This document shows, piece by piece, positions 3,750 through 58,571 of a stretch of 64,000 bases of DNA; position 1 is the first letter of the stretch, and the number at the start of each line of letters is the position of its first letter. This stretch comes from Candidatus Gottesmanbacteria bacterium UBA6580 (GTDB taxonomy: Bacteria > Patescibacteriota > Microgenomatia > UBA10105 > UBA927). The position numbers and the translations under genes were made by a program. The notes under the pieces were generated by a model. It ran no database searches and was not told where the DNA came from. It saw nothing but the letters and a program-made list of their open reading frames with translations. The DNA is taken from NCBI GenBank assembly GCA_002433895.1, contig DJJA01000003.1:9950-73949 (forward strand). The letters are read 5' to 3'.

Positions 3750-4280
3750 TTATACGGCAACAGGAGCTGGCTCTCCCGGTTTTACCCGTTCCCCGCCGTG
3801 CAGTATTTTATTGACGATCGGTGCCACCGCTTCTGAAGTGACGACTGCGCCGCCTACTTTTGCCATTTTTCCTACTGCCCACTCCACCGGTCGGTACCGC
3901 ATTGTTGCCCACATACCAACGCCTTTAGTAAGCAATGAGCCTCTCATTGCAAATGGTATAACAACGGCAGTCAGCGCTATATCGGCAAGACGCGCACCAA
4001 ACTGAGCTATTTGAGCTGCTTCGTATGCCGCTGGGCGCAAGTCTGCGAGCATCTTTTGGGAACCCTCGTATCCTTTATTCCCCATCCGGTCAATCATCTG
4101 CTCGTAAGCCTCCACAGTTTCTACCAACGGTGCTGCACGCCGTACTTTTTCTGGCACAAGCGGGGTTTTAACATTCTTTTCCCGCCCACCCTGGAACCGC
4201 CCACTCTGTTTCATCTCAAGATAGGCAATTGCCCTACTCCTCGGACTCATTGCTGCTTCACCCATAGATTGCTCACTCAT
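3750..4280 (-). CDS. Hypothetical protein, cassette large member L3
   Basis: 176 aa ORF; 4-nt overlap with S3. Hydrophobic LADIALTAVVIPFAMRGSLL followed by the Trp/Gly-rich segment GVGMWATMRYRPVEWAVGKMAKVGGAVV. Confidence 0.5.
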   Translation of the reverse strand: MSEQSMGEAAMSPRSRAIAYLEMKQSGRFQGGREKNVKTPLVPEKVRRAAPLVETVEAYEQMIDRMGNKGYEGSQKMLADLRPAAYEAAQIAQFGARLADIALTAVVIPFAMRGSLLTKGVGMWATMRYRPVEWAVGKMAKVGGAVVTSEAVAPIVNKILHGGERVKPGEPAPVAV

Positions 4281-8410: not shown

Positions 8411-9418
8411 TTATTTTACAATGAAAGTGCCACCATACATCCCCATACTACAACTAAACGGTAACTCTCCGCTGGTATCCGGAGCGGTAAAGCTCACCGT
8501 GGTTGTCTGTCCCACCGGCACCACCTCCTGTATTCCAAGCTGCGGGATGGTGAATGCCTGGATACACCCCTCCCCCGCGGTATTCGTTAGGGTAAGCGTA
8601 ACATCTTGCCCTTTCGGAATAACCGGGTTATCTATCCTGTAGCCATTGAGCCAAAATGTAATAACTGGCGTCGTCGTCGGTTCACCCGTGCTTTGCCCAT
8701 CAGGGCAAAATGTGATGGTGCAATACGCAGAGCGCGCGAGTGATTTCAACGTCACTGTAGACCCGTACAACGTGAGCGCTGCGTTGAAATTAATGAGTGC
8801 AAGCACCATCACGAGCGTTGCGGCGACAACACCGAACTTATCCTTCAGTGTCGCTTTAATAACGTCGATCGAAACCCCAAGAAGGAAAAATAACGGTGCG
8901 GTTCCCAACACAAACACGAAAAGCACCGCCATCCCCCACCATGGACTTCCGGTGCCAGCTGCCAACGCCATCATTGCCTGCGTTGTCCCGCAAGGAATAA
9001 AAACAGAAAGTAATCCGATTACAAATGGCGCAAATACTCCCCCCGCCTTTGCCCTACCTCTGATAAACTTGGTGAGAAACCGCGGCGGCTGGATGACAAA
9101 ATAACGGAATAATGGATGCACGTCGAGAAAGGAAAGCGCTGTACCAATCATAAAAAACGAAGCTAAACCGATACCGATAGCCTGTGCCCTCGGTGATAAT
9201 CCAACTTGTGACCCTACCCACCCCAGAAAGAACCCCAACACTGCATGAGAAATAAGCTTAGCAAGTAAAAATGACGCCACTCCCCACGCCCGTGACCCCC
9301 GGGGATGCTCTTCTTCTTCAGAAGAAAGTGCAGTCACGAGTAAGCCTCCCTGTACGGCCATACAGGTCAGGCCGCCCGCGATTAAACCGGTCGTAAATAT
9401 GATCCAAAGGTTAGGCAT
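8411..9418 (-). CDS. Membrane protein: DsbD/CcdA-like transmembrane domain fused to a C-terminal cupredoxin-like domain
   Basis: 335 aa; multiple TM helices with Cys in TM segments (GGLTCMAV, IPCGTTQ). C-terminal domain ends SCSMGMYGGTFIV, resembling the cupredoxin_1-type C-terminus also seen in 9834..10187. Confidence 0.55.
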   Translation of the reverse strand: MPNLWIIFTTGLIAGGLTCMAVQGGLLVTALSSEEEEHPRGSRAWGVASFLLAKLISHAVLGFFLGWVGSQVGLSPRAQAIGIGLASFFMIGTALSFLDVHPLFRYFVIQPPRFLTKFIRGRAKAGGVFAPFVIGLLSVFIPCGTTQAMMALAAGTGSPWWGMAVLFVFVLGTAPLFFLLGVSIDVIKATLKDKFGVVAATLVMVLALINFNAALTLYGSTVTLKSLARSAYCTITFCPDGQSTGEPTTTPVITFWLNGYRIDNPVIPKGQDVTLTLTNTAGEGCIQAFTIPQLGIQEVVPVGQTTTVSFTAPDTSGELPFSCSMGMYGGTFIVK

Positions 9419-12442: not shown

Positions 12443-12453
12443 TTTAACGGGAT

Positions 12454-13122
12454 TTATACCTTACTGATTTCCTTCTGAAGTTGTGAGATATTTCGGACAA
12501 TAAGGAGTCGTCCTTTTGTTGCCAACAGTCCTTTTTTCACTAACGTCTCGACTTGCAGGCTGGCTGTTTCTCTTGTGGTTCCTATCCATGACGCGATCTC
12601 GCGGTGTGTCAATGGAACCTTTAGGGCAATCCCCTCCTTGGTCTGCTCACCGAAGTTGTCTGCATAGTACAGAATAAGCAAAATTGTTTTGGTATATGCA
12701 TCATCAAGCACCAACTGCGCTACCCGGCTAACAAAGCCCGCAAGACCAAGCGCCAAGCGCTGTGTCGCGTAAAAAAGCACTTCGGGATATTCCTTGATAA
12801 ATGTTAAAAACGCATCTTTCGGCGCGCGGGTAAGGACAGCCGGGGTCATCGCTTCAAAATGATACACATTAGGTGTATCGTTTAAAATCCACGTGAGTGG
12901 AAAAAATGATCCAGGCTTGTAAATATGCACTATAAACGTTTCCCCTGAAGGCGAAAGCAGATATTGTCGAACATAGCCGCTCTGCAGATAATAAACGCCA
13001 AACGGCGCGTCTTCTGCCCGCAATATAAGCTCGCCTTTCTTATATGACATCGGCGAATAACCGACGAAAAACGAATCTATTTTTTTAAGGACCTGCGGGT
13101 TAGTTTTGGCCATATCGTACAT
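12454..13122 (-). CDS. Crp/Fnr-family transcriptional regulator
   Basis: 222 aa; N-terminal cNMP-binding-like beta-barrel region and C-terminal HTH (THREIASWIGTTRETASLQVETLVKKGLL). Confidence 0.7.
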   Translation of the reverse strand: MYDMAKTNPQVLKKIDSFFVGYSPMSYKKGELILRAEDAPFGVYYLQSGYVRQYLLSPSGETFIVHIYKPGSFFPLTWILNDTPNVYHFEAMTPAVLTRAPKDAFLTFIKEYPEVLFYATQRLALGLAGFVSRVAQLVLDDAYTKTILLILYYADNFGEQTKEGIALKVPLTHREIASWIGTTRETASLQVETLVKKGLLATKGRLLIVRNISQLQKEISKV

Positions 13123-15137: not shown

Positions 15138-15635
15138 TTATTTTTTCCGCGGACGCGTAATATCTACTGCCTCATTCATCGTATCGACGATCATGTGGAT
15201 GATATTGGTCGCTTCTTCCAAGCTCAGCCTCCGCACATTGTGGGGAAAATAATGAAATACCAGGTTGCGCCCCTGCTTCCACGTATTCCACAACACCTCC
15301 GATAAATGCGGACCGTACCGCTTTGTCACCGCACCATAGGCACTTTTTGTACCCAGCCTGCGGATAAGATTGGGGCTCAAGACTTTTCCTAGGCGGAAAT
15401 GGGCGCTTTCATATTCACGCTCACTTATTATTTCAAGATCGCGGAACAGCTGTTTTAGAAAGCCCTCATACAGCTTTGCAAACGGAAACACCAGATACGA
15501 ATAATCACTTAACTCTTCGTTGGGATGATTCTTTCTGTCCGCAAGCAACAATTGCCCATCCAACGCCAGTTGCCGCTGGGTAATACTCAGATACTGCCAC
15601 AGTAATGAACTGGGTTGCATCATATCAACGAACAA
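15138..15635 (-). CDS. Hypothetical protein
   Basis: 165 aa ORF; no recognisable motif; overlaps downstream gene start by 11 nt. Confidence 0.35.
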   Translation of the reverse strand: MFVDMMQPSSLLWQYLSITQRQLALDGQLLLADRKNHPNEELSDYSYLVFPFAKLYEGFLKQLFRDLEIISEREYESAHFRLGKVLSPNLIRRLGTKSAYGAVTKRYGPHLSEVLWNTWKQGRNLVFHYFPHNVRRLSLEEATNIIHMIVDTMNEAVDITRPRKK

Positions 15636-16086
15636 ATATTATTGTTTCCGCCAAAAAAATTATGAACGAAATAATGAGGATTGACCGTTGCGCCGGAGCG
15701 CTTACAGGTCCAGCCACCATACGATACCAACTATCCAGATTATGGTGTATCCGCCATTCTCCTACTTGCCACAACAACATCTGCAAATAGAGTGACAACA
15801 CTAAACCAATCCCGATCATACTTGTGGAACTCGTCACCACAAAAAACGCCACAATCGCAAATAATGCGCCGAAGACAATGGAACGGAACGGTGAAGGTTG
15901 CAACCCAAAAAATATTTCAGCAGCGTCAAGGAAATAAATGCCGATTGCCCCACCCATAAAAAACCACAATGCATCAAGAGAGGGGTTCGTAAGCCATTTT
16001 AACAACACCAACACCAATAAGTACACACCGGTAATATACACAAAAATTCGGGGCTTACTGCGTATCAATTCCTTCACTTTATCCAT
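15625..16086 (-). CDS. Hypothetical membrane protein (start probably MDKVKE)
   Basis: ORF 15625..16167; four predicted TM helices; a (TG)6 repeat lies at the 5' end of the longest frame. Confidence 0.4.
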   Translation of the reverse strand: MDKVKELIRSKPRIFVYITGVYLLVLVLLKWLTNPSLDALWFFMGGAIGIYFLDAAEIFFGLQPSPFRSIVFGALFAIVAFFVVTSSTSMIGIGLVLSLYLQMLLWQVGEWRIHHNLDSWYRMVAGPVSAPAQRSILIISFIIFLAETIIFVR

Positions 16087-16184
16087 GTGTATGTATTGTA
16101 ACGCAAAATTACCAACAGTGAAGCTTTGGATTGATATGTAACAGTCGTGTGTGTGTGTGACGTACAATCATCCTGTGCGCACGC

Positions 16185-33998: not shown

Positions 33999-35509
33999 AC
34001 TGTCCCTCCTTTTCCTGCAAATTTGTTTGTGATAGCGACATAGCGGTCAAGCTGCTCTTTACCTTTCCCGGACAACAACATGTCTAACCCATATTTGGTA
34101 CATTGCCGAAGCATCTCCCTGTTTACGTGCTTTTTCTTCCTGTCCAATGCGTTGGGATCCATCAGACACCTGCGGACAAAAATCCCCAACCCCACGGTCA
34201 TTGCCAAATACTTCGCCCGTGTTACATCCCGTCCCTCTATCGCAGTAATATTTGCTTCCATGATGGAGTCGTATGTATTGGGTATTGCGAGTGAACCAGG
34301 AAAAAAATCAGCAAGATCCCGCGGATCGTAAAAATCTTCCGGAGACAATATGTAGGTTCCCGCATTCTCCCCGTTCACTAAAAATGATGCGATAGTTTTG
34401 TACGGCGGCGGCGCCACCTCGTCCAGCACCACCACATGCTTCATAAGTATCGGATCCACTATGTTCTCATCATCGCTCGATACGAGTGTCCCGCAATATA
34501 CTGCGCTATTTTCGTATCGTTGAAACCCTTTTTGTGAAAGTATGGATAATGCGTCAACCACCACGGACGGATGCACTTTTTCATTTACTCCGATCATTGC
34601 GTGAACCGGTGTTTCGGAAGACAGGGTAAATGCCAACGGACCGATAACGTGATTTACTGTCTCCCCCTTTAGCTTGTGTGACAACGAATGAAGCGTTCTG
34701 GTATTATGACAACTCGTCATTAATACATTCGACTGGCACAGCACTTCCTCAAATGCCTGCGGCGTATGAAAATCGGACCGCGCACCAAATGCTTCAATCG
34801 CACTCTGTCCGGCAACCTTCGACGTATTTGGATATGAGTGGTGTTTGTGCACTGCTCCATCAACAGAGAGAGCAATTGCCGCCAAAGTAGAAAGGCTAAA
34901 CAGCTTCGTCGTGTGACTATTTAACGGATACCCCTTATCCCCGCCCATACCACCAAACGCCACAATTGGACCGTCATGGGTGGTTCTCACGACTGTATCG
35001 AGGTGAATAGTTGCCGCCACCATGCCGGCAATTTCCTCTGCAGTGAGACCGACATATGCTTCTTTCGTTGACATGGCGGAAAGCAACATCGTTGCCTGCA
35101 GCAAATGCGTATCTAGTGGCATGATATTTTTTAATTTCGCCCCGATAGCATCATGAAGCGGCCGGTTAAGAGCCGCGCAAACAAACACTCCTAGTCCGAA
35201 CGCCTCGTCAAACGTGAGCCGCTTCCCCTGCTCTATTTTTTGCTGAATTGTATAGTACCCTCCCTTTTCAAATAAATCTGACAGCCGTGATTCTACCTCG
35301 GCCACCTTACGCGCCAGGTCGTGTACATAATTCGTGTGCTGCGCCAACGTATTGAGACTTTTATTACTGTCTATCGCAACTGTTACCCCATCCATTTCTA
35401 CATATTTTTGATACGGCTCACCCCGTAACTGGATAAAGGAAACGTCGCCAAAGATACCCCGGGATTTCCTTTTGCACGGAAACCTCCGGGGCAACCTCCT
35501 TATTAACAA
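33995..35509 (-). CDS. Glycosyl transferase family 3 protein (anthranilate phosphoribosyltransferase/TrpD-like) with N-terminal extension
   Basis: 504 aa; GGMGGDKG...NTS region matching the TrpD/thymidine-phosphorylase fold; true start uncertain. Confidence 0.5.
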   Translation of the reverse strand: MLIRRLPRRFPCKRKSRGIFGDVSFIQLRGEPYQKYVEMDGVTVAIDSNKSLNTLAQHTNYVHDLARKVAEVESRLSDLFEKGGYYTIQQKIEQGKRLTFDEAFGLGVFVCAALNRPLHDAIGAKLKNIMPLDTHLLQATMLLSAMSTKEAYVGLTAEEIAGMVAATIHLDTVVRTTHDGPIVAFGGMGGDKGYPLNSHTTKLFSLSTLAAIALSVDGAVHKHHSYPNTSKVAGQSAIEAFGARSDFHTPQAFEEVLCQSNVLMTSCHNTRTLHSLSHKLKGETVNHVIGPLAFTLSSETPVHAMIGVNEKVHPSVVVDALSILSQKGFQRYENSAVYCGTLVSSDDENIVDPILMKHVVVLDEVAPPPYKTIASFLVNGENAGTYILSPEDFYDPRDLADFFPGSLAIPNTYDSIMEANITAIEGRDVTRAKYLAMTVGLGIFVRRCLMDPNALDRKKKHVNREMLRQCTKYGLDMLLSGKGKEQLDRYVAITNKFAGKGGTV

Positions 35510-35559
35510 ACATCCCCAAGCATTCTTTTGACATAGACACTCCTTTCAAAAAAATAACA

Positions 35560-35870
35560 ATAAAAAACCCCTGCAAATCCTTCAGTCCGCCGATTGGCGG
35601 ATGAAAAACTTGCAGGGGCCTATTATGGCGGTGCCACCCTGCTATTTGTTATTCTCATAAAAAATCCCGCCGATGGCGGGACGTCAGGTGAGAATAACCT
35701 CATTCATGACGAGCTCCGTTTCCTACGACACTCGTTCCTGTCTTTTTACGGTTTCGGCTCCGTACTTGATTTAAGAGTCAGCTCGCCCCGATATTATCGG
35801 GGCTGACCCGGTTCCAACCCTCCGGATCGACGCTTTTATTTACCCCGATTCAATCGGGGGTTATTTGGAA
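35560..35870. repeat. Cluster of four GC-rich hairpins with GAT-containing loops in a divergent intergenic region
   Basis: ccgccGATTggcgg nested inside cccctgcaa...ttgcagggg; cccgccGATggcggg; gccccgatATtatcggggc; ccccgattCAAtcggggg. Confidence 0.4.
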
Positions 35871-36271: not shown

Positions 36272-36344
36272 CGCGGGGTAGTGTAAAGTTGCACAGGAGG
36301 CTCATAATCTCCTAGGCTGGGTGCGATTCCCAGCCCCGCAACCA
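36272..36344 (+). tRNA. tRNA-Met (anticodon CAU) with initiator-like acceptor stem (C1.A72 mismatch) and 3' CCA
   Basis: Cloverleaf: acceptor CGCGGGG/CCCCGCA, U8, D-stem GUGU/GCAC with short 6-nt D-loop, anticodon loop CUCAUAA, T-stem CUGGG/CCCAG, discriminator A, encoded CCA. The acceptor is identical to E. coli tRNA-fMet. Confidence 0.75.
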
Positions 36345-37908: not shown

Positions 37909-37983
37909 GAGCCAGCGTAGCTCAGTGGTAGAGCAGTGTCTTCATAAGGCATTTGTCGCAGGTCCGATCCCTGCCGCTGGCAC
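37909..37983 (+). tRNA. tRNA with CAU anticodon (elongator tRNA-Met or tRNA-Ile2/lysidine), encoded CCA
   Basis: Acceptor GCCAGCG/CGCUGGC, D-arm GCUCAGUGGUAGAGC, anticodon loop UUCAUAA, T-arm GCAGG-UCCGAUC-CCUGC, discriminator A + CCA. Confidence 0.8.
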
Positions 37984-38005
37984 CAGATAGAAACCTCACT
38001 GGTGA

Positions 38006-38471: not shown

Positions 38472-39332
38472 ATGACACTCGACTTAAAAGGCGCTCACAA
38501 ACAATTCGTCGAATACCTGCAGTCACGCCGCCGTGCCCACGCTACCATCGTAGCATACAGCAAGGATATAGAGCAGCTTGTGGCGTTCCTTACCAATGCG
38601 GGCAAAAAGGAAATAACAACCGTTTCCCGCGAAGAACTTGAGGCTTTCTTAAAAAAGCTTGCCGCTGATAGCTATACGCCAAAATCAATCTCACGGAAAA
38701 TTAATTCTATGAAAACCTTTTACCGGTTCTTAAAAACGACCGGCGTGCTCGCATCTGATCCCGCAAGTGACATTGAACACCCGAAATACGAAATCAAACC
38801 GCCCCGCATACTCTCAAAACTAGAGTACCGCGCGTTACGGGATGCATGCCGTAGCGATGTACGAACACATGCTATCGTCGAGCTGTTTCTCCAAACGGGA
38901 CTCCGCATTGGTGAACTCGCCAACCTTATGGTTGAAGATGTCCGTCCCAGTGAGCTGCACGTTGCTGCCCAGGAAGGACACGAGGAGCGCATGGTGCCGT
39001 TAAATCGCGCCGGCCGCGAAGCATTAGATAACTGGCTTAAAGCCAGAAACAATGATACAAAATCCCACGCCTTATTTATTACCAAAACAGGACGGCCCCT
39101 TCTTATTCGCAATATCAGAACCGCAATTGACCGCTATTTCAAAGTCGCGGGCATTGAAGACGCAAAAGTAAATGACCTCCGGCACACTTTTATCGCCCAC
39201 CATCTTATGGCCGGTACACCTATCACCACCATAAGCAAATTGGTCGGTCATAAACGCCTATCAACAACTGAAAAATATCTTGAGTTCATCAAAGATAAAC
39301 AAACCGACCACGTAAAACTGGACGAACTCTAA
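38472..39332 (+). CDS. Tyrosine site-specific recombinase (XerC/XerD-like)
   Basis: 286 aa; N-terminal SAM-like core-binding domain; catalytic residues in LRHTFIAHHL and VGHKRLSTTEKYL (H-x-x-R ... Y). Confidence 0.8.
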   Translation: MTLDLKGAHKQFVEYLQSRRRAHATIVAYSKDIEQLVAFLTNAGKKEITTVSREELEAFLKKLAADSYTPKSISRKINSMKTFYRFLKTTGVLASDPASDIEHPKYEIKPPRILSKLEYRALRDACRSDVRTHAIVELFLQTGLRIGELANLMVEDVRPSELHVAAQEGHEERMVPLNRAGREALDNWLKARNNDTKSHALFITKTGRPLLIRNIRTAIDRYFKVAGIEDAKVNDLRHTFIAHHLMAGTPITTISKLVGHKRLSTTEKYLEFIKDKQTDHVKLDEL

Positions 39333-39339
39333 AGCGATT

Positions 39340-39556
39340 TGTATACTATAAAAGGCGCTTGTAGTCTGACCAGTCATCAGACGAGCCATCCGCACGAACA
39401 TTGGCATTCTTTGCTGATAAGTAATCGGAACGGGTAAGCCCGTCATAGCAGTAATGAGATCCGCCGGCTGGCGGAAACTAAGGTGGTACCACGGATTAGC
39501 GCGATTAACTGCGGCTGACTCGTCCTTATAGTAAGATATAAGTGGCGGGTTTTTTT
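39340..39556 (+). promoter_or_regulatory. T-box-like leader upstream of valS (conserved T-box sequence AACUAAGGUGGUACCACGG at 39476..39494)
   Basis: Near-consensus T-box motif (AAnUAGGGUGGNACCGCG) with a UGGU bulge candidate; upstream GUC-A candidates for a Val specifier (39373..39376); a T7 run abuts the valS ATG. Confidence 0.5.
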
Positions 39557-41791
39557 ATGGATAAAAACTTTGATCCTAAGGCAACAGAAGATGCAATATA
39601 CCGGATGTGGGAAACCGGCGGTTTTTTTGCGCCCAACAAGAGTTCACAAGCCAAGCCGTTTACCATTATCATGCCTCCACCCAACGCTAATGATCCCCTG
39701 CATATCGGGCACGCCATGTTTATCACGATTGAAGATATCCTCATCCGCTACCACCGGATGAAAGGAGAAAGCACACTCTGGCTCCCCGGCACCGACCACG
39801 CGGGCATTGAAACACAATTTGTATTTGAAAAAAAACTTGCCAAACAAGACAAAAGCCGGTTTAATTTTGACCGTGAAACCCTCTACAAAATGATATGGGA
39901 TTACGTTCAGGAAAACTCCGGCGTGGCGATTGATCAGATGAAAAAGCTGGGTGCTTCTGCCGACTGGAGCACATTTAAGTTTACGCTTGATCCCGATATC
40001 GTTGCACGCGTACTGGAAACGTTCATCAAACTCCATAAAGATAACCTGGTATACCGCGGTCAAAAACTTATAAATTACTGCACTAAATGTGGTACAGGGT
40101 ACTCTGAGCTTGAGGTGGAGCATGTCGAGGAAACCACAAAGCTTTATTTCATCAAATACGGACCATTCGTGCTGGCAACCACTCGGCCGGAAACAAAGTT
40201 TGCCGATACTGCGGTTGCCGTCAACCCCAATGACAAACGATATAAAAGCTACATAGGCCAGGAAATAGAAGTTATGGGACTATTAGGCACATTCAAATTG
40301 AAGGTTATCGCCGATGATTATGTCGACCCTGAATTTGGCACGGGGGTTGTAAAAATTACGCCATATCACGACTTTAACGACTTTGACGTATGGCAACGGC
40401 ATATAGACGAAATACCGGCTCCCAAGCAGGTTATCGACAAGCAAGGAAAGCTCACATCCATCGCGGGAAAATATGCCGGAATGAAAATTAAAGCCGCGCG
40501 GGAGATGATCGAAAAAGACCTCGGTGAAAAAGGGTTACTCGCCAAACCAAGCGAAGCCTACACACACAACGTTGGCGTATGTTACCGGTGTAAAACAGTC
40601 CTGGAACCGCTGCCGCTTACGCAATTTTTTATCAAAACCAAGCCACTCGTTGAGGGCGCACTTCGCGCGCTTGATACGGGTGAAACAAAGATATTGGGTG
40701 CGGGACAAGATAAAATATTGCGGCATTGGCTCACCAATATCCGCGACTGGAATATTAGCAGACAAATTGTGTGGGGCATCCGGATTCCGGTTTGGTACAA
40801 CATCAAAGGACATGAACAACGGGCATGGCTGAGCTTTCTCGACAAGGAGGGCAAGCAACAACAAGGTACGCTTGCTCAATATTTGAATGAATTCGGATTT
40901 GACCATATCAAAAAAAATCTTCAACAAATCGACGTAGGAACATGGAGTGAAGGGAACAATCCTGACTGGGTAGTCAGCGTCACCGAGCCAAGCGAAGATG
41001 GGTTATGGATCCAGGAAACGGATACCTTTGATACCTGGTTTTCTTCCGGTCAGTGGCCGGTCGTGACGTTGCAAACGAACGGTGCTGCCGTATTTGAAAA
41101 ATTTTATCCCACATCGGTTATGGAAACGGGCTACGATATATTGCCGATTTGGGTCATGCGGATGATGCTTCTGGGCATCTATGTCACGGGGAAATCACCG
41201 TTTACTACCGTGTATCTTCACGGACTCGTCCGTGATGAAAAAGGGCAAAAAATGAGTAAGTCAAAAGGAAATGTCATCAATCCACTGGACATGGTCGACA
41301 AATACGGCGCTGATGCGATCAGGATCGCGCTTGTCATGAGCTCAACTCCGGGTCAGGACAAGGCGGTCGGCGAAAACACCATCCGTGGCATGCGCAACTT
41401 TTCCAATAAAATCTGGAACGCTGCCCGCTTCGTGTATATGGAGAAGCAACATGCTGAAGCTACCGACGCGCCGGGCATTGAAGATAATAATTTTATGAAA
41501 AAACTGGACGAAACGGTACATTCAATTACACAGCTTTTAAATGCGCTTCGGGTGGGGCTTGCAGCAGAAACAGTACACAATGAATTTTGGCACTGGTACT
41601 GCGATGTGGCCATTGAACAAAGAAAGCGGAAAGAAATTTCCTTACAAGCGCTTGAAACAGGGCTAACCACATTCCTCACCCTGCTCCACCCATTTATGCC
41701 GTTTGTCACTGAAGAAATATGGGGGAAATTTGTAAACGACGGCCGCTCCCCGCTTATCATCTCCTCATGGCCGGAAAATAAAAACGTTTAG
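39557..41791 (+). CDS. valS: Valine--tRNA ligase (short form lacking C-terminal coiled coil)
   Basis: ORF 39542..41791, with a start at MDKNF. PPNANDPLHIGHA...RY.RM.G...LW.PGTDHAGIETQ matches the ValRS N-terminus; KMSKSKGN present. Confidence 0.8.
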   Translation: MDKNFDPKATEDAIYRMWETGGFFAPNKSSQAKPFTIIMPPPNANDPLHIGHAMFITIEDILIRYHRMKGESTLWLPGTDHAGIETQFVFEKKLAKQDKSRFNFDRETLYKMIWDYVQENSGVAIDQMKKLGASADWSTFKFTLDPDIVARVLETFIKLHKDNLVYRGQKLINYCTKCGTGYSELEVEHVEETTKLYFIKYGPFVLATTRPETKFADTAVAVNPNDKRYKSYIGQEIEVMGLLGTFKLKVIADDYVDPEFGTGVVKITPYHDFNDFDVWQRHIDEIPAPKQVIDKQGKLTSIAGKYAGMKIKAAREMIEKDLGEKGLLAKPSEAYTHNVGVCYRCKTVLEPLPLTQFFIKTKPLVEGALRALDTGETKILGAGQDKILRHWLTNIRDWNISRQIVWGIRIPVWYNIKGHEQRAWLSFLDKEGKQQQGTLAQYLNEFGFDHIKKNLQQIDVGTWSEGNNPDWVVSVTEPSEDGLWIQETDTFDTWFSSGQWPVVTLQTNGAAVFEKFYPTSVMETGYDILPIWVMRMMLLGIYVTGKSPFTTVYLHGLVRDEKGQKMSKSKGNVINPLDMVDKYGADAIRIALVMSSTPGQDKAVGENTIRGMRNFSNKIWNAARFVYMEKQHAEATDAPGIEDNNFMKKLDETVHSITQLLNALRVGLAAETVHNEFWHWYCDVAIEQRKRKEISLQALETGLTTFLTLLHPFMPFVTEEIWGKFVNDGRSPLIISSWPENKNV

Positions 41792-42768
41792 AATTCTGCG
41801 GATCTTGTTGTGGGAGTTGCTGCCGGCAGACTCACGGAAGGTGTGGCAGTATTGACTACACCCGTCTTAAACGAAGCAATAATTTCGTTAAACACGACAT
41901 CGTCACTGGCAAAATCAGAGGTAATTCCCGCCGGAGCAAAGTGATTAAATTCAACCGCAAGCGTCTCTGAAACCGGCATAAGCACGCCACGGATAGCGGT
42001 AAAGGTATAACCACCTCCGGTTCTCCCGGTAAAATTCCCGGTGTACTCATAGGCATATACGCCGCCATATACCCCCTGTTTCATCGTAAACTCACGACCG
42101 GCGGCATCAGTAAGAATGGCACCACGAAAATCAGGTAGTAATTGTCCTTTTCCCCGCGCTGCGACGGTGAAACGGGTTCCCCCGGGTAAGTTAGTGCCCT
42201 GAGATGCACAACTTTGACTGTCACATACCGGTGCTTTTATCCCACTCGGCATTTGATACGTTAATCCGTCAATTGGTTTTTTTGTTACACCGCTTATGAC
42301 GTTGTACACCTGACGCACGCCGGATGGCGCCGCACCTGAAGGGCTTGCCACACCAGCCGCTGGAGGGCTAACCCGCGCAACGGGAGCAAGGGTTGGCACG
42401 ACCGTCTCTTCTGAGACTGACGGCGCAAAAAATGTACGCAACTGACTACTCAACCATACGCCAAGTCCGAAAAGGATAACAATAAATAAAATTGTTCCAA
42501 GATGATTTTTCTTCGATGGTTTCTTTATGTGTTCTTCCGTTACGTGCAAACCCTCAGACAACGGGTCATTTTTCTGTGCTACCTCAGGTGAAGGTTGAAA
42601 TACCCGGGACGCTTCAGGAATTACGGACGCCACCTCATCCTCCCGTTCGCTTGTTGAGAGCGGAGCCTGTGCTGATGCTACCTCTCCTGAAACTGGATCG
42701 ATAATCGGAGTTTCTTCGTAAGAGAGTGATGGCTTTTCTTCGGAGTTCTGTTTTAGTGGTTCATCCAT
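41788..42768 (-). CDS. Hypothetical membrane-anchored protein (acidic N-terminus, one TM, extracellular domain)
   Basis: 326 aa ORF; TM at ILFIVILFGLGVWL. Confidence 0.4.
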   Translation of the reverse strand: MDEPLKQNSEEKPSLSYEETPIIDPVSGEVASAQAPLSTSEREDEVASVIPEASRVFQPSPEVAQKNDPLSEGLHVTEEHIKKPSKKNHLGTILFIVILFGLGVWLSSQLRTFFAPSVSEETVVPTLAPVARVSPPAAGVASPSGAAPSGVRQVYNVISGVTKKPIDGLTYQMPSGIKAPVCDSQSCASQGTNLPGGTRFTVAARGKGQLLPDFRGAILTDAAGREFTMKQGVYGGVYAYEYTGNFTGRTGGGYTFTAIRGVLMPVSETLAVEFNHFAPAGITSDFASDDVVFNEIIASFKTGVVNTATPSVSLPAATPTTRSAEF

Positions 42769-51073: not shown

Positions 51074-51076
51074 AGG

Positions 51077-52375
51077 TTATGTTTTTATCGAGTTGCGGTA
51101 TTTGACTAACGCAATTATACCGGTTGAAACCAAAACAAAAAACTCCGAAGATATCGTTATCCAAGCGGCAGCATGCATACCGTAGCTCGGAATAAATATT
51201 GCGTTACAAAAAATATTTCCAATCATCGCAATACCGTGAACGACAAGTAACACCCGTTGCATTTTCCGGGCGATAAGAAACCACATAAATAATGCGGATA
51301 CAAAAAAAATGGGTAAACCGAGAATGAGAATTCGCAGCGGCGCGATGCTATCTGCAAAATCAGGCCGGACCAGGGTTACCAGTGGGGCAGTCACCCATAT
51401 GCCAACCGCCAAGATCACCGAACTAAAAAGTAAAAACTGCAAAGACCGGATAAAAATATTCCTGTCTTGGGAGCCCTGCTGTTTACCGTTTTTCAAAAGA
51501 AGTGGATATACCGCGTTCATGAAAAAAATTGGCACCACCAAGGGAAGCTCAAACACTTTATACGCAAGACCATAAATTCCTACCTCACGTGTTGTTCGTG
51601 TGAGTGTAAGCACCACACTGTCTGAGTGAAAATAAATAAGATTGAAAATAAGCGCAAGACCTAAAGGCGTTCCATCACGCAAATAGGAAGCAAACGCGGA
51701 AAAAGAAATTTTTGGCAATATACTTCCCAAGTGCCCCCGTACTAGCTTGAGCGCAAGCAATGCCGTAATGACGCTGCCAGCGATAACAGAAAATACCCCC
51801 AAAAAAGAGCCGCTGATTGAGGTCCAGTAGGAGAGCGACATCACTACTGTTAACATCGCCAACGAACCTGCGTTTTGCGCAACAGTTGAAAGGTCATACC
51901 GGAGGATTTTCTGAAAAAATGCATTTGTCGTGGTGGTCACCGCCTGGGCAAAAATAACCGGAATAAGTATCACAATGCCGAGGCGCACAAGTTCGGTATA
52001 TCCCTGACTAAGGCCGGGTGGGAGGAGGGATAAGATTGCAAGCGCAACGGCAATCAGCACCAAGCTCATGATTAACCGAAGTCCCAAGAGAAGCCGCCAA
52101 TCATTGCCGACGCTCGGTCTGGATATTTTTTCTTCGCCAGCTGTTCGCTGAAGATATACCGCGTTTAACCCAAAATCTGCTATCAAGTAAAAAAAGCTTA
52201 CGTAGGTGGTAATTTTAACAAAGTCCCCATACCCCTCAGGACCGTAGCGTTTTGCGATAAGCAAACTTACAATCACCACAGCCACTGAACTAATAACTCG
52301 CCCAATCAGCTGACTAAGCGTATTACCAGCTACAATTCGACGCAACGAACCCCGGGGAAGCCAATCGTGTAACAT
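51077..52375 (-). CDS. Polysaccharide biosynthesis flippase (Wzx/MOP superfamily)
   Basis: 432 aa; about 12 TM helices, typical flippase topology. Confidence 0.6.
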   Translation of the reverse strand: MLHDWLPRGSLRRIVAGNTLSQLIGRVISSVAVVIVSLLIAKRYGPEGYGDFVKITTYVSFFYLIADFGLNAVYLQRTAGEEKISRPSVGNDWRLLLGLRLIMSLVLIAVALAILSLLPPGLSQGYTELVRLGIVILIPVIFAQAVTTTTNAFFQKILRYDLSTVAQNAGSLAMLTVVMSLSYWTSISGSFLGVFSVIAGSVITALLALKLVRGHLGSILPKISFSAFASYLRDGTPLGLALIFNLIYFHSDSVVLTLTRTTREVGIYGLAYKVFELPLVVPIFFMNAVYPLLLKNGKQQGSQDRNIFIRSLQFLLFSSVILAVGIWVTAPLVTLVRPDFADSIAPLRILILGLPIFFVSALFMWFLIARKMQRVLLVVHGIAMIGNIFCNAIFIPSYGMHAAAWITISSEFFVLVSTGIIALVKYRNSIKT

Positions 52376-52402
52376 GGGGCAATTGTAGCATGTTTATACT
52401 TT

Positions 52403-57156: not shown

Positions 57157-57159
57157 AAT

Positions 57160-58545
57160 CTATAGGTCAAATGAATGTTCCTGCCATGCGGACTTAAGCA
57201 GTGACAAGTGTTCTGCGGGGAGATTATACGTATCGCCCCATTGCTCCAGAACAGTCTCCCGGAGGCTGGCAACTTCCCCGTCAGTTACGTGCATATCCGC
57301 ATACACCCGCAATAAACCCTCCGGAATATCTTTTGCTTCTTTTTTATACTTTTGCACACTTAACCACACCGCCAATCTCGCCTCATCGCGGGTACCCACG
57401 CACTCAAACGGCTTCACGGGGGTAAGCCCGACAAGTTCACGGATAAACCCGATAATCTCAGGGTGCACAAAAAAATCACTTCCAAATATGCGCGCTATAT
57501 CGGTAAATGATAAAAACGGAACAAGAACCAGATAGGTAAATGCGCACTTGGCACACATGCCGCACCACGCTCCTGTTTTGCTACCGACATTACAGCTCCG
57601 GAACAGGGGATAATACTGAGGGTATGTTGCGAACAATACTGCTATTTGCAGATCATTAAGCGGCCGGAGCAGGCTAAAATAAGCAGCAGACCCGGGTAAA
57701 AACTCAGCCACATACTGCCGGAAACTCTGTTCAAACCGAAAACTCTTGGAATATTGGTGATTAATCTCCATCCCGTGGAAAACGACATTGCCCTCATCAG
57801 CGCTTTTTTCATTTGCCACAATAACGTGCTCCTGGTTTGTCACCATTGCAACCGTTACTCCTAAAAATGCCAAATATGCAGAAAAGGGGGTATGACCGTT
57901 TAAGTATCCTTTCGCATTTAAATCGAGCAGTGTTGGGTCGATAGTGCGCTCTATTACAAGCGGCGCCTGGGAGGAAGACGCTTCCACCACCGCGAGTGCC
58001 GCTTTTGTGGGATTTACAATCATCGTGCGGAGCTTTCTACTGCCCTTTTTAAGTAACCCAAGGGCAACGGCTGAATCTTTGCCTCCCCCCACCAAAAAAA
58101 GATCACTTAAAGATGGAGATAGATTGTTGTTTCGCGCTAAATCAAATATTTGTGCATCTTTATCTGTGGTTGTGATAGTGAAAAAATTCTCGTGGGTAAA
58201 ATCTATGGAATTCCGGTAAAAAAATTCGCCTAGCCCATGAATAAATAAGTCATACCAAAACCGTACTTGTCCGGGTGATAACGGCTCGGCCTCCACCACA
58301 AACTCGGGCGGACAAGCAGCTTTCCAATAGCTTATTGCTTCAACCAGGCCCAGATGAAATGCGTACGGACGGAGCGTATCCACGTCAATGCTTCCATCAA
58401 TGGGGATGGTTACCCGTGGCCGAAATACGATATGAGGCTCGAGCAAAAACTCATGTTCGATGACAATAACGCCATCCAGTTTCGTGATGGAATATCTTTT
58501 ATAAACAAGCCGAGGATGATTAAGCCGCAGTTGTTCGAGCGTCAT
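57160..58545 (-). CDS. PP-loop (SGGxDS-type) ATPase-family protein with QueC-like C-terminal Cys cluster
   Basis: 461 aa; LVGGGKDS PP-loop at about residue 160 after an N-terminal extension; C-x10-CGMC-AKC cluster. Stop is 4 nt from the murD start, suggesting translational coupling. Confidence 0.5.
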   Translation of the reverse strand: MTLEQLRLNHPRLVYKRYSITKLDGVIVIEHEFLLEPHIVFRPRVTIPIDGSIDVDTLRPYAFHLGLVEAISYWKAACPPEFVVEAEPLSPGQVRFWYDLFIHGLGEFFYRNSIDFTHENFFTITTTDKDAQIFDLARNNNLSPSLSDLFLVGGGKDSAVALGLLKKGSRKLRTMIVNPTKAALAVVEASSSQAPLVIERTIDPTLLDLNAKGYLNGHTPFSAYLAFLGVTVAMVTNQEHVIVANEKSADEGNVVFHGMEINHQYSKSFRFEQSFRQYVAEFLPGSAAYFSLLRPLNDLQIAVLFATYPQYYPLFRSCNVGSKTGAWCGMCAKCAFTYLVLVPFLSFTDIARIFGSDFFVHPEIIGFIRELVGLTPVKPFECVGTRDEARLAVWLSVQKYKKEAKDIPEGLLRVYADMHVTDGEVASLRETVLEQWGDTYNLPAEHLSLLKSAWQEHSFDL

Positions 58546-58571
58546 GCCTTAGGTATTGTACCACTCCGGGA

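Follow-up and report, generated by a model that had tools for sequence, protein, structure and literature searches.

The valS gene of Candidatus Gottesmanbacteria bacterium UBA6580 is most probably controlled by a valine-specific T-box riboswitch. The element lies at 39357 to 39556 on the + strand of a 64,000-nucleotide (nt) stretch of contig DJJA01000003.1 (the whole of this stretch is called the window below), and would allow readthrough into the gene when uncharged tRNA-Val stabilizes an antiterminator. The established part of this reading comprises the sequence and structure elements of the leader, their conservation and covariation, and the agreement between the codon presented and the gene that follows.

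Identification of a T-box-like leader upstream of valS

The + strand, read directly, has a gap of 224 nt between a tyrosine-recombinase gene (38472 to 39332) and the valS ATG at 39557. The Rfam T-box family, RF00230, matched this gap at 39351 to 39530 over model positions 1 to 219, with 44.8 bits under permissive filters (E = 7.7e-9 when 401 nt were searched, and 1.2e-6 for both strands of the whole window with 4227 families), and in that window-wide search it was the sole match other than tRNAs. Stem II, the Stem IIA hairpin, Stem III, and the T-box/antiterminator all aligned to the model, and 70 consecutive model positions, corresponding to the upper two-thirds of Stem I, were replaced by 3 nt. 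The score amounts to about half of the gathering cut-off because these ~70 distal Stem I positions are missing. At the curated Rfam thresholds, the window returned two tRNA-Met genes only and no T-box, and 14 related loci returned tRNAs only, none of the 14 leaders passing. The gathering threshold is an annotation criterion and not a biological one, and a negative threshold scan alone would mislead.

A first-pass annotation of this DNA had proposed a T-box leader with a GUN codon in front of valS. The T-box-like 19-mer on which it relied, AACTAAGGTGGTACCACGG at 39476 to 39494, is present and departs from the consensus quoted there at 2 of 16 specified positions. The search with RF00230 that it suggested gave a significant match, though under the curated threshold, and the specifier hairpin presents GUC and is conserved with covariation; neither of the two absences that it named as telling against a T-box, that of a significant RF00230 match and that of a conserved Stem I/specifier loop, was found. 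Its assignment of the gene as valS also holds (788 bits with the NCBIfam equivalog model, whose cut-off is 704). The elements of the leader are as follows, all on the + strand; MFE denotes minimum free energy.

39342 to 39347, +: −10-like promoter box TATACT (promoter scan TGGACG-17-TATACT; predicted function)
39357 to 39386, +: Stem I module (RF00230 alignment, MFE fold, covariation)
39357-39358 with 39385-39386, +: base helix of Stem I, two pairs (G39357-C39358 with G39385-C39386)
39359 to 39363 opposite 39383-39384, +: kink-turn (K-turn) region, UUGUA with an extra U at 39362, opposite G39383-A39384
39364-39369 with 39377-39382, +: 6-bp helix of Stem I (MFE fold)
39370 to 39376, +: 7-nt apical specifier loop CCAGUCA, with GUC (Val) at 39373-39375 and a conserved 3' purine, A39376
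39389 to 39429, +: Stem II (RF00230 alignment, MFE)
39389-39392 with 39426-39429, +: lower helix of Stem II
39393-39399 and 39419-39425, +: asymmetric internal loop of Stem II, 5' CACGAAC and 3' AAGUAAU, with the loop-E/S-turn signature GAA/AGUA
39400-39406 with 39412-39418, +: upper helix of Stem II
39430 to 39443, +: Stem IIA hairpin ACGGG-UAAG-CCCGU, the hairpin part of the IIA/B element (RF00230 alignment)
39461 to 39474, +: Stem III, CCGCC-GGCU-GGCGG, flanked by AAUGAGAU (5') and AAAC (3') (RF00230 alignment, MFE)
39479 to 39528, +: discriminator/antiterminator (MFE of the isolated segment)
39479-39483 with 39524-39528, +: helix A1, UAAGG/CCUUA
39484 to 39490, +: 7-nt T-box bulge UGGUACC; UGGU at 39484-39487 is the predicted partner of the tRNA 3'-ACCA
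39491-39494 with 39520-39523, +: helix A2 (ACGG...CUCGU), with an A39495/C39519 mismatch and an apical extension at 39496-39518
39517 to 39551, +: terminator hairpin of 14 bp, loop 39531-39536, bulged U39543
39550 to 39556, +: U7 tract, directly after the hairpin and directly before the valS ATG at 39557
39557 to 41791, +: valS, 744 amino acids (aa) (NCBIfam equivalog models, 788 and 760 bits, both above cut-offs; Pfam tRNA-synt_1 and Anticodon_1)

An ultrashort Stem I presents a valine codon

Relatives were collected by searching the valyl-tRNA synthetase (ValRS) in the contigs of a one-genome-per-species GTDB set, which gave 80 loci. The closest ValRS sequences belong to Candidatus Gottesmanbacteria (84 to 86%), followed by other Microgenomates/Patescibacteria. 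In 14 of the 80 loci, the core AGGUGGUACC precedes valS by 50 to 160 nt, and these 14, together with two metagenome contigs, provided 16 related Microgenomates valS leaders, which have a short hairpin with GUC in its apical loop. A metagenome scan with the exact 14-mer core retrieved, among the matches listed, mostly ordinary long-Stem-I T-boxes and at least two further short-type valS leaders, L156 and L144.

The GUC triplet is found in the loop of all 17 valS leaders, window included, followed by A in 16 and by C in one, and the apical loop of the related leaders has the consensus YYW-GUC-A. A 7-nt loop of the form NNN-codon-R is present in 18 of 20 leaders, the exceptions (L004 and L031) having an A-C mismatch at the closing position. 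Of the two GUC triplets put forward by the first-pass annotation as candidate specifiers, the one at 39373 to 39375, within the GUC-A that it had correctly placed at 39373 to 39376, is the specifier in the apical loop; the other, at 39364 to 39366, belongs to the 5' strand of the Stem I helix. Likewise, the Stem I/specifier that it anticipated is conserved and presents GUC, though in the form of an ultrashort hairpin with an apical loop; the internal specifier loop of a canonical, long Stem I is absent.

Covariation in Stem I was counted on short module alignments; a whole-leader MAFFT alignment placed the 3' strand out of register between sub-types and was kept for the discriminator only. Across 15 leaders, all four inner Stem I pairs show compensatory changes, with 96.7% of positions paired and a covariation score of 0.78, compared with 0.30 after shuffling (0 of 500) and 0.06 to 0.10 with a slid partner; the pairs of the base helix are 90% paired in the same set. 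When 17 distinct hairpins were considered, including three from leaders of proS, each of the five pairs next to the loop has changes in both partners; pairing stands at 92.9%, and the covariation score of 1.02 compares with 0.28 shuffled (0 of 500) and at most 0.18 slid. A strict hairpin rule (stem of at least 4 bp and a 7-nt loop NNN-GUC-R) was satisfied at 11 of 14 loci with the T-box core, at 4 of 66 without it, and in 9 of 319 coding control windows.

The proS leaders carry a different codon in the same position. Upstream of a prolyl-tRNA synthetase (ProRS) gene, L095, a hit from the metagenome scan (reverse complement, ~8760 to 8960), has the hairpin GCGG-UUUCCCG-CCGU; the closest named relatives of this ProRS are from Woesebacteria (80%) and Shapirobacteria (at most 75%). 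Two more proS leaders came from loci retrieved by homology: that of L210 (Shapirobacteria, 975 to 1190) has GCGG-UAUCCCG-CCGC and a terminator, and L211 (Microgenomates, 700 to 865) has ACGG-UAUCCCG-CCGU with a Shine-Dalgarno (SD)-proximal hairpin, before a tRNA-binding-domain gene and proS. CCC-G occupies loop positions 4 to 7 in all three, in the register of the valS GUC. No T-box was found at the proS locus of L209 (Woesebacteria). A valine codon before valS and a proline codon before proS, in one structural slot, is the classical argument for a specifier, and it points here to this predicted role for the triplet.

Stem II, Stem IIA, and Stem III

The GAA/AGUA signature of the Stem II internal loop is found in most related leaders that have this stem; the G of GAA is missing from L026 and L003, and AGUA is replaced by CUAG/UUAG in L016 and L077. 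In a qualitative comparison, the lower helices vary in sequence between leaders while the internal-loop signature is kept. The alignment of window-type leaders has only six sequences and places Stem II poorly, which precludes statistics on Stems II and III. Stem IIA is kept in the window, L001, L026, L002, and L027 and is altered in L003. For the IIB pseudoknot, only a GC/GC contact of 2 to 3 bp is possible, and it is inconsistent across relatives. Among the relatives from the genome collection, Stem III is shared by the window and L027 only, and it is also present in the metagenome valS leader L144; the nearest relatives carry GAGAAGCAA in its place.

Antiterminator, terminator, and start region

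In isolation, the discriminator has the canonical antiterminator as its MFE structure; at −12.5 kcal/mol, this fold is not more stable than those of shuffled sequences. The canonical arrangement of A1, 7-nt bulge, and A2 is recovered in 13 of 15 leaders. The A1/A2 helices are 98.3% paired, against 23 to 53% when slid, and four of eight pairs change on both sides in the same 15 leaders. All 15 can also form a competing hairpin that is more stable. That of the window reaches −15.5 kcal/mol (z = −4.59, with 0 of 200 shuffles as stable). Its 5' arm is formed by the 3' strands of A2 and A1 (overlap 39519 to 39528), so that hairpin and antiterminator are mutually exclusive. Such a pairing of a weak, ligand-dependent antiterminator with a terminator that is strong by default is what one would expect of a T-box. 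The valS hairpin was absent from the output of a terminator scan, probably owing to the bulged U, and folding with shuffles was used instead.

In 14 of the 17 valS leaders the hairpin is followed by a tract of U5 to U8, with 0 to ~250 nt between it and the start codon; L029 and L014 have an interrupted tract, and L004 lacks one. In the window, the hairpin ends 5 nt before the valS AUG, and the T7 run at 39550 to 39556 directly abuts this codon, as the first-pass annotation had stated. It had further argued that the lack of space for a ribosome-binding site (RBS) pointed to terminator or sequestrator coupling. The hairpin with its U7 is indeed best read as an intrinsic terminator, but a missing RBS is common in the window and not peculiar to valS: no SD sequence precedes this gene (GGCGGG in the window, GACGAG in L001), and an SD core was found before the first ATG in only 13 of the 50 long open reading frames (ORFs) of the window. 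At the other end of the leader, the TATACT box lies 9 nt upstream of the first paired base, and TATACT or TATAAT occurs at the equivalent place in L001, L026, L002, and L003.

Diversity of the related leaders

The related leaders fall into two sub-types and one outlier. Window-type leaders (the window, L001, L026, L003, and L002, with L027 more distant) have Stem II and IIA, and a hairpin with U5 to U7 at or near the AUG. The second sub-type (L012, L014, L016, L018, L023, L029, L031, and L077, from Collierbacteria, Woesebacteria, or unclassified metagenome-assembled genomes [MAGs]; leaders at ~2720 to 2950 in most loci) has Stem II without IIA/B or Stem III. In these leaders the segment from discriminator to start codon folds at −28 to −60 kcal/mol, and the very strong terminators lie ~10 to 100 nt upstream of the AUG; the tract of U5 to U7 is uninterrupted in six of the eight, L029 and L014 having interrupted U-rich runs.

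The outlier is L004, a single sequence from an Amesbacteria MAG (1816 to 1926), whose valS leader of ~97 nt runs from Stem I through 25 nt of purine-rich linker (AAGAAGCAAUAAAGG) to the discriminator. Stem II, IIA/B, and Stem III are all absent, and the competing hairpin covers AGGAGG and is not followed by a U-run. If functional, this leader would be a very small natural T-box.

Two further observations concern these loci. L016 and L031 have the palindrome GGAUUCCCGAUCAGGUCGGGAAUGAC at two places, one in the apical loop of Stem II and the other downstream of the terminator. Many Patescibacteria-like contigs (L003, L006 to L009, L012 to L014, L016, and others) are titled "uncultured Pseudomonadales" or "uncultured Gammaproteobacteria" and look like mislabelled MAGs.

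Comparison with the known T-box classes

The ileS T-boxes of Nocardia farcinica and Mycobacterium tuberculosis are said to have been described by Sherwood et al. in 2015. Class definitions were taken from PMC7583486 and PMC10482949, the latter (2023) distinguishing four classes: Class I, with a long Stem I bearing a distal platform and with Stem II; Class II (glyQS), with a long Stem I and no Stem II; Class III (N. farcinica ileS), with a short Stem I, a penta- or hexanucleotide apical specifier loop, and a required Stem II; and Class IV, with a Stem I of intermediate length (PMC10482949).

The architecture of the window leader resembles Class III, with differences. Both have a short Stem I without the distal double-T-loop platform and with an apical specifier followed by a purine, a Stem II with an S-turn (by its sequence signature in the window), Stem III, and a discriminator of canonical form. 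Of the K-turn found at the base of Stem I in this class, the window has the base helix and the 3' GA, with the 5' GA interrupted; of the IIA/B element that follows Stem II, it has the IIA hairpin. Helix A2 carries an apical insertion in the window, which is frequent in this class (PMC7583486). Unlike the ileS T-boxes, the window leader presents the valine codon GUC and not an isoleucine codon, comes from Microgenomates within the Candidate Phyla Radiation (CPR) and not from Actinobacteria, has an apical loop of 7 nt, has an A-U pair in place of the G-U wobble at the base of A2, and combines its hairpin with U7 as a predicted intrinsic terminator where Class III has an SD sequestrator (a typical, not strictly defining, feature). 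Among the relatives of the window leader, Stem IIA/B, Stem III, and in one case Stem II itself have been lost. In the model systems, IIA/B and Stem III are reported, from deletions, to be necessary for tRNA binding (PMC7583486).

With Class I (Bacillus subtilis tyrS, Firmicutes valS, and the RF00230 seed), the leader shares the order of elements, the T-box sequence, the 7-nt bulge, the terminator/antiterminator logic, and the regulation, here predicted, of an aminoacyl-tRNA synthetase gene by its own tRNA. It lacks the ~70 positions of Stem I that hold the internal specifier loop, the AG bulge, the distal loop, and the platform for the tRNA elbow. Only the relative L004, with its single-stranded linker between Stem I and discriminator and no Stem II, shows some likeness to Class II glyQS; the window leader differs from that class (glycine, long Stem I, no Stem II) in its GUC codon, ultrashort Stem I, and the presence of Stem II.

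The host, a Candidatus Gottesmanbacteria-like member of the CPR/Patescibacteria, belongs to a lineage in which T-boxes have not been described in the literature searched, in line with the remark of the first-pass annotation that a T-box here would be noteworthy. In the T-box database TBDB, short-Stem-I T-boxes were sought only in Actinobacteria or among hits passing the Rfam model (PMC7778990), and a 2024 perspective on Patescibacteria refers to riboswitches only as prospective tools for modulating gene expression (PMC11665869). Full-text literature searches combining T-box with CPR, Patescibacteria, or Microgenomates returned nothing, which is not proof of novelty.

Proposed mechanism and alternative explanations

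From these elements we infer tRNA binding, a role for Stem II, and termination, as against translational control, as the main output. In the proposed mechanism, the GAC anticodon of uncharged tRNA-Val would pair with GUC in the 7-nt apical loop of the ultrashort Stem I, and the S-turn of Stem II would support the codon-anticodon helix, as in actinobacterial ileS T-boxes. The free 3'-ACCA end of the tRNA would pair with UGGU in the T-box bulge; bacterial tRNA-Val has A73, which matches the prediction from this bulge. This pairing would stabilize the weak antiterminator (39479 to 39528) and block the stronger hairpin (39517 to 39551), so that RNA polymerase could pass the U7 tract and transcribe valS. 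Charged tRNA-Val would leave the antiterminator unstabilized, the hairpin with U7 would form, and transcription would end at the start codon. In a full-length transcript, the hairpin would bury positions −40 to −6 relative to the AUG, and a secondary effect on translation is possible.

Several observations weigh against this mechanism. The 44.8 bits of the RF00230 match are below the Rfam gathering score of 93 bits. Most of the A1/A2 covariation separates the two sub-lineages and thus reflects few independent events. At the base of A2, an A-U pair replaces the usual G-U wobble, with the uridine retained. The 5' strand of the K-turn reads G39361-U39362-A39363, with an inserted U that is missing in the four nearest relatives; of the GA-rich, K-turn-like elements noted in the first-pass annotation, the 3' GA (39383-39384) and the two-pair base helix are in place, and the 5' GA is interrupted by this U. 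No tRNA-Val gene, in which the GAC anticodon and A73 could be checked, was found in the window or in 91 loci, which contain tRNAs for Met, Glu, Arg, and Ser only. Finally, transcriptional T-boxes are held in general to need the platform of a long Stem I for fast capture of the tRNA (PMC7583486), a view that tells against co-transcriptional control through an ultrashort Stem I.

One alternative is a purely translational T-box of the actinobacterial ileS kind, in which the hairpin at 39517 to 39551 would sequester the landing region of the ribosome and U7 would act as an unstructured, S1-type loading site and not as a termination signal. Ultrashort Stem I T-boxes have so far been found mostly to control translation (PMC7583486, PMC10482949), and the proximity of the hairpin to the AUG, 5 nt away, would suit such a role, as would the 3' arm of the hairpin in L027 and L003, which contains GGAGG or AAGGAG, and the competing hairpins of L004 and L211, which contain AGGAGG and have no U-run. 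The window, however, has no SD sequence to sequester, like most of its genes; a 14-bp hairpin followed by U7 is a textbook intrinsic terminator; and in relatives that keep the hairpin with U5 to U8 at 20 to ~250 nt from the AUG, it cannot occlude the start. We consider purely translational control of valS unlikely, though its probability is not negligible. Termination is favoured as the predicted output because hairpin and U-tract are kept in relatives far from the AUG (20 to ~250 nt; L002, L012 to L031, and L144), because there is no SD sequence to hide, and because SD-less starts are normal in the source genome. Both outputs seem to exist in the group, with L004 and L211 looking purely translational.

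The inserted U39362 and the A-U pair could instead be taken as inactivating lesions in a decaying T-box remnant, with valS expressed constitutively by readthrough. The one-base insertion in the 5' GA distinguishes the window from four close relatives, and the K-turn is reported to be essential for tRNA binding by T-boxes with a short Stem I and Stem II (PMC7583486). The leader, including U39362, is identical in three independent assemblies, so this base is a real genome feature and not an assembly error; the same identity across three independent samples speaks against decay. The other elements are intact, with specifier, bulge, and terminator unchanged in comparison with relatives at 82 to 86% ValRS identity, and, without some means of antitermination, a strong terminator ahead of an essential gene would kill the cell. 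The G-U wobble has been described as a steric sensor, but the A-U pair is common to all window-type relatives except L027 and is thus a lineage trait, not a lesion. A remnant is very improbable on these grounds.

Chance resemblance, with the hairpin and U7 serving as terminator of the co-oriented recombinase gene (38472 to 39332), whose readthrough the hairpin could also stop, draws on the sub-threshold Rfam match and is effectively refuted, with hardly any probability left to it, by the E value of 1.2e-6 at window scale, the conservation and covariation of Stem I and antiterminator across 17 leaders with differing upstream genes, and the −10 box between the recombinase stop codon and the leader.

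A second T-box-like leader on the minus strand

The window contains a second, weaker T-box-like leader at 35842 to 35560 on the − strand (RF00230, 24.7 bits, E = 0.0014 on 471 nt), with the following elements.

35882-35874, −: −10 box with upstream TG (TGCTATACT)
35828-35822 with 35811-35805, −: 7-bp hairpin with a 10-nt loop, AGGGUUGGAA, and UGG-A at 35816-35813
35803-35785, −: inserted palindromic hairpin
within the second leader, −: long Stem III
35642-35612, −: discriminator GCAGGG-UGGCACC-GCC-AUAAUA-GGC-CCCUGC
35618-35610 with 35576-35568, −: terminator, followed by U6

It precedes an operon for a 504-aa glycosyltransferase-family-3 protein, a BtpA-family protein, and a fusion of tryptophanyl-tRNA synthetase (TrpRS) with a tRNA-binding domain, and its UGGC bulge fits G73 of tRNA-Trp. 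The leader is kept upstream of the same operon in L201, L203, and L204, and it is also present in L205 (Woesebacteria), where the operon lacks trpS; it therefore follows the family-3 gene and not trpS. These features are those of a putative Trp-type T-box-like leader.

The palindrome CCCCGAU-N3-AUCGGGG occurs twice near this leader (35843-35859 and 35785-35803, −), and the copy inside its Stem I is found in the window and L201 only. Such small palindromic repeats in or next to leaders, also seen in L016 and L031, look like elements of the REP (repetitive extragenic palindromic) or MITE (miniature inverted-repeat transposable element) type that are tolerated in variable loops. Downstream (35421 to 35534, −), a strong SD sequence (GAAAGGAG) and an ATG at 35534 open a frame of only 37 codons, and the 504-aa ORF starts in another frame with TTG at 35509 (−), its homologues having 475 to 530 aa. 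The 37-codon frame could be a small upstream ORF, a frameshift, or the result of a mis-set start.

The valS gene and its neighbourhood

The start of valS is identical in three other assemblies, and the exact ValRS sequence occurs in the sequencing runs SRR5325083, SRR1506987, and SRR2082602. ValRS matches the 860-residue valS models only to about position 700 to 715 and is without the usual C-terminal extension; alignments with related ValRS proteins reach from query residue 1 to ~740, as expected if their lengths are similar. Just upstream of the leader are two tRNA-Met genes (36272 to 36344 and 37911 to 37985) and the XerC/D-like tyrosine recombinase (38472 to 39332), an arrangement also seen in L001, L002, L003, and L026. 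Convergent with valS is a 326-aa ORF (41788 to 42768, −) that has no Pfam match and is unchanged in other assemblies. A GGTGGCACC site at 3820 to 3828 (−) was set aside, as it has no T-box context.

TATACT, TACAAT, or TATAAT is found 3 to 13 nt before the ATG of many genes of the window, for example at the ORFs 12453-13122, 15624-16167, 51076-52393, and 57159-58548. This placement suggests that leaderless transcripts may be widespread in the source genome.

Implications

To our knowledge, T-boxes, the textbook tRNA-reading RNA, have been mapped almost entirely in Firmicutes and Actinobacteria. The leaders described here would extend them to the CPR, where gene regulation is essentially unexplored. 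It is an evenly poised question, in our judgement, whether Microgenomates have their own radiation of miniaturized T-boxes, comprising valS and proS leaders and the Trp-type leader on the trpS operon, with a 7-nt apical codon loop, no contact to the tRNA elbow, and usually an intrinsic terminator. If so, co-transcriptional sensing of tRNA would not require the platform of a long Stem I, and the lineage would hold the smallest natural T-boxes, of ~97 nt and without Stem II, IIA/B, or Stem III. The whole set is missed by the curated Rfam thresholds and by the TBDB class searches confined to Actinobacteria (PMC7778990).

The combination of a compact Stem I with a predicted terminator would contradict the generalization that transcriptional T-boxes need a long Stem I (PMC7583486), and these leaders would therefore offer a natural system for testing the kinetic argument on tRNA capture. 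The natural reductions among the relatives, with or without IIA/B, Stem III, and Stem II, amount to a ready-made deletion series, and the very small variants could be of use as compact switches that respond to tRNA, among other things for controlling expression in Patescibacteria.

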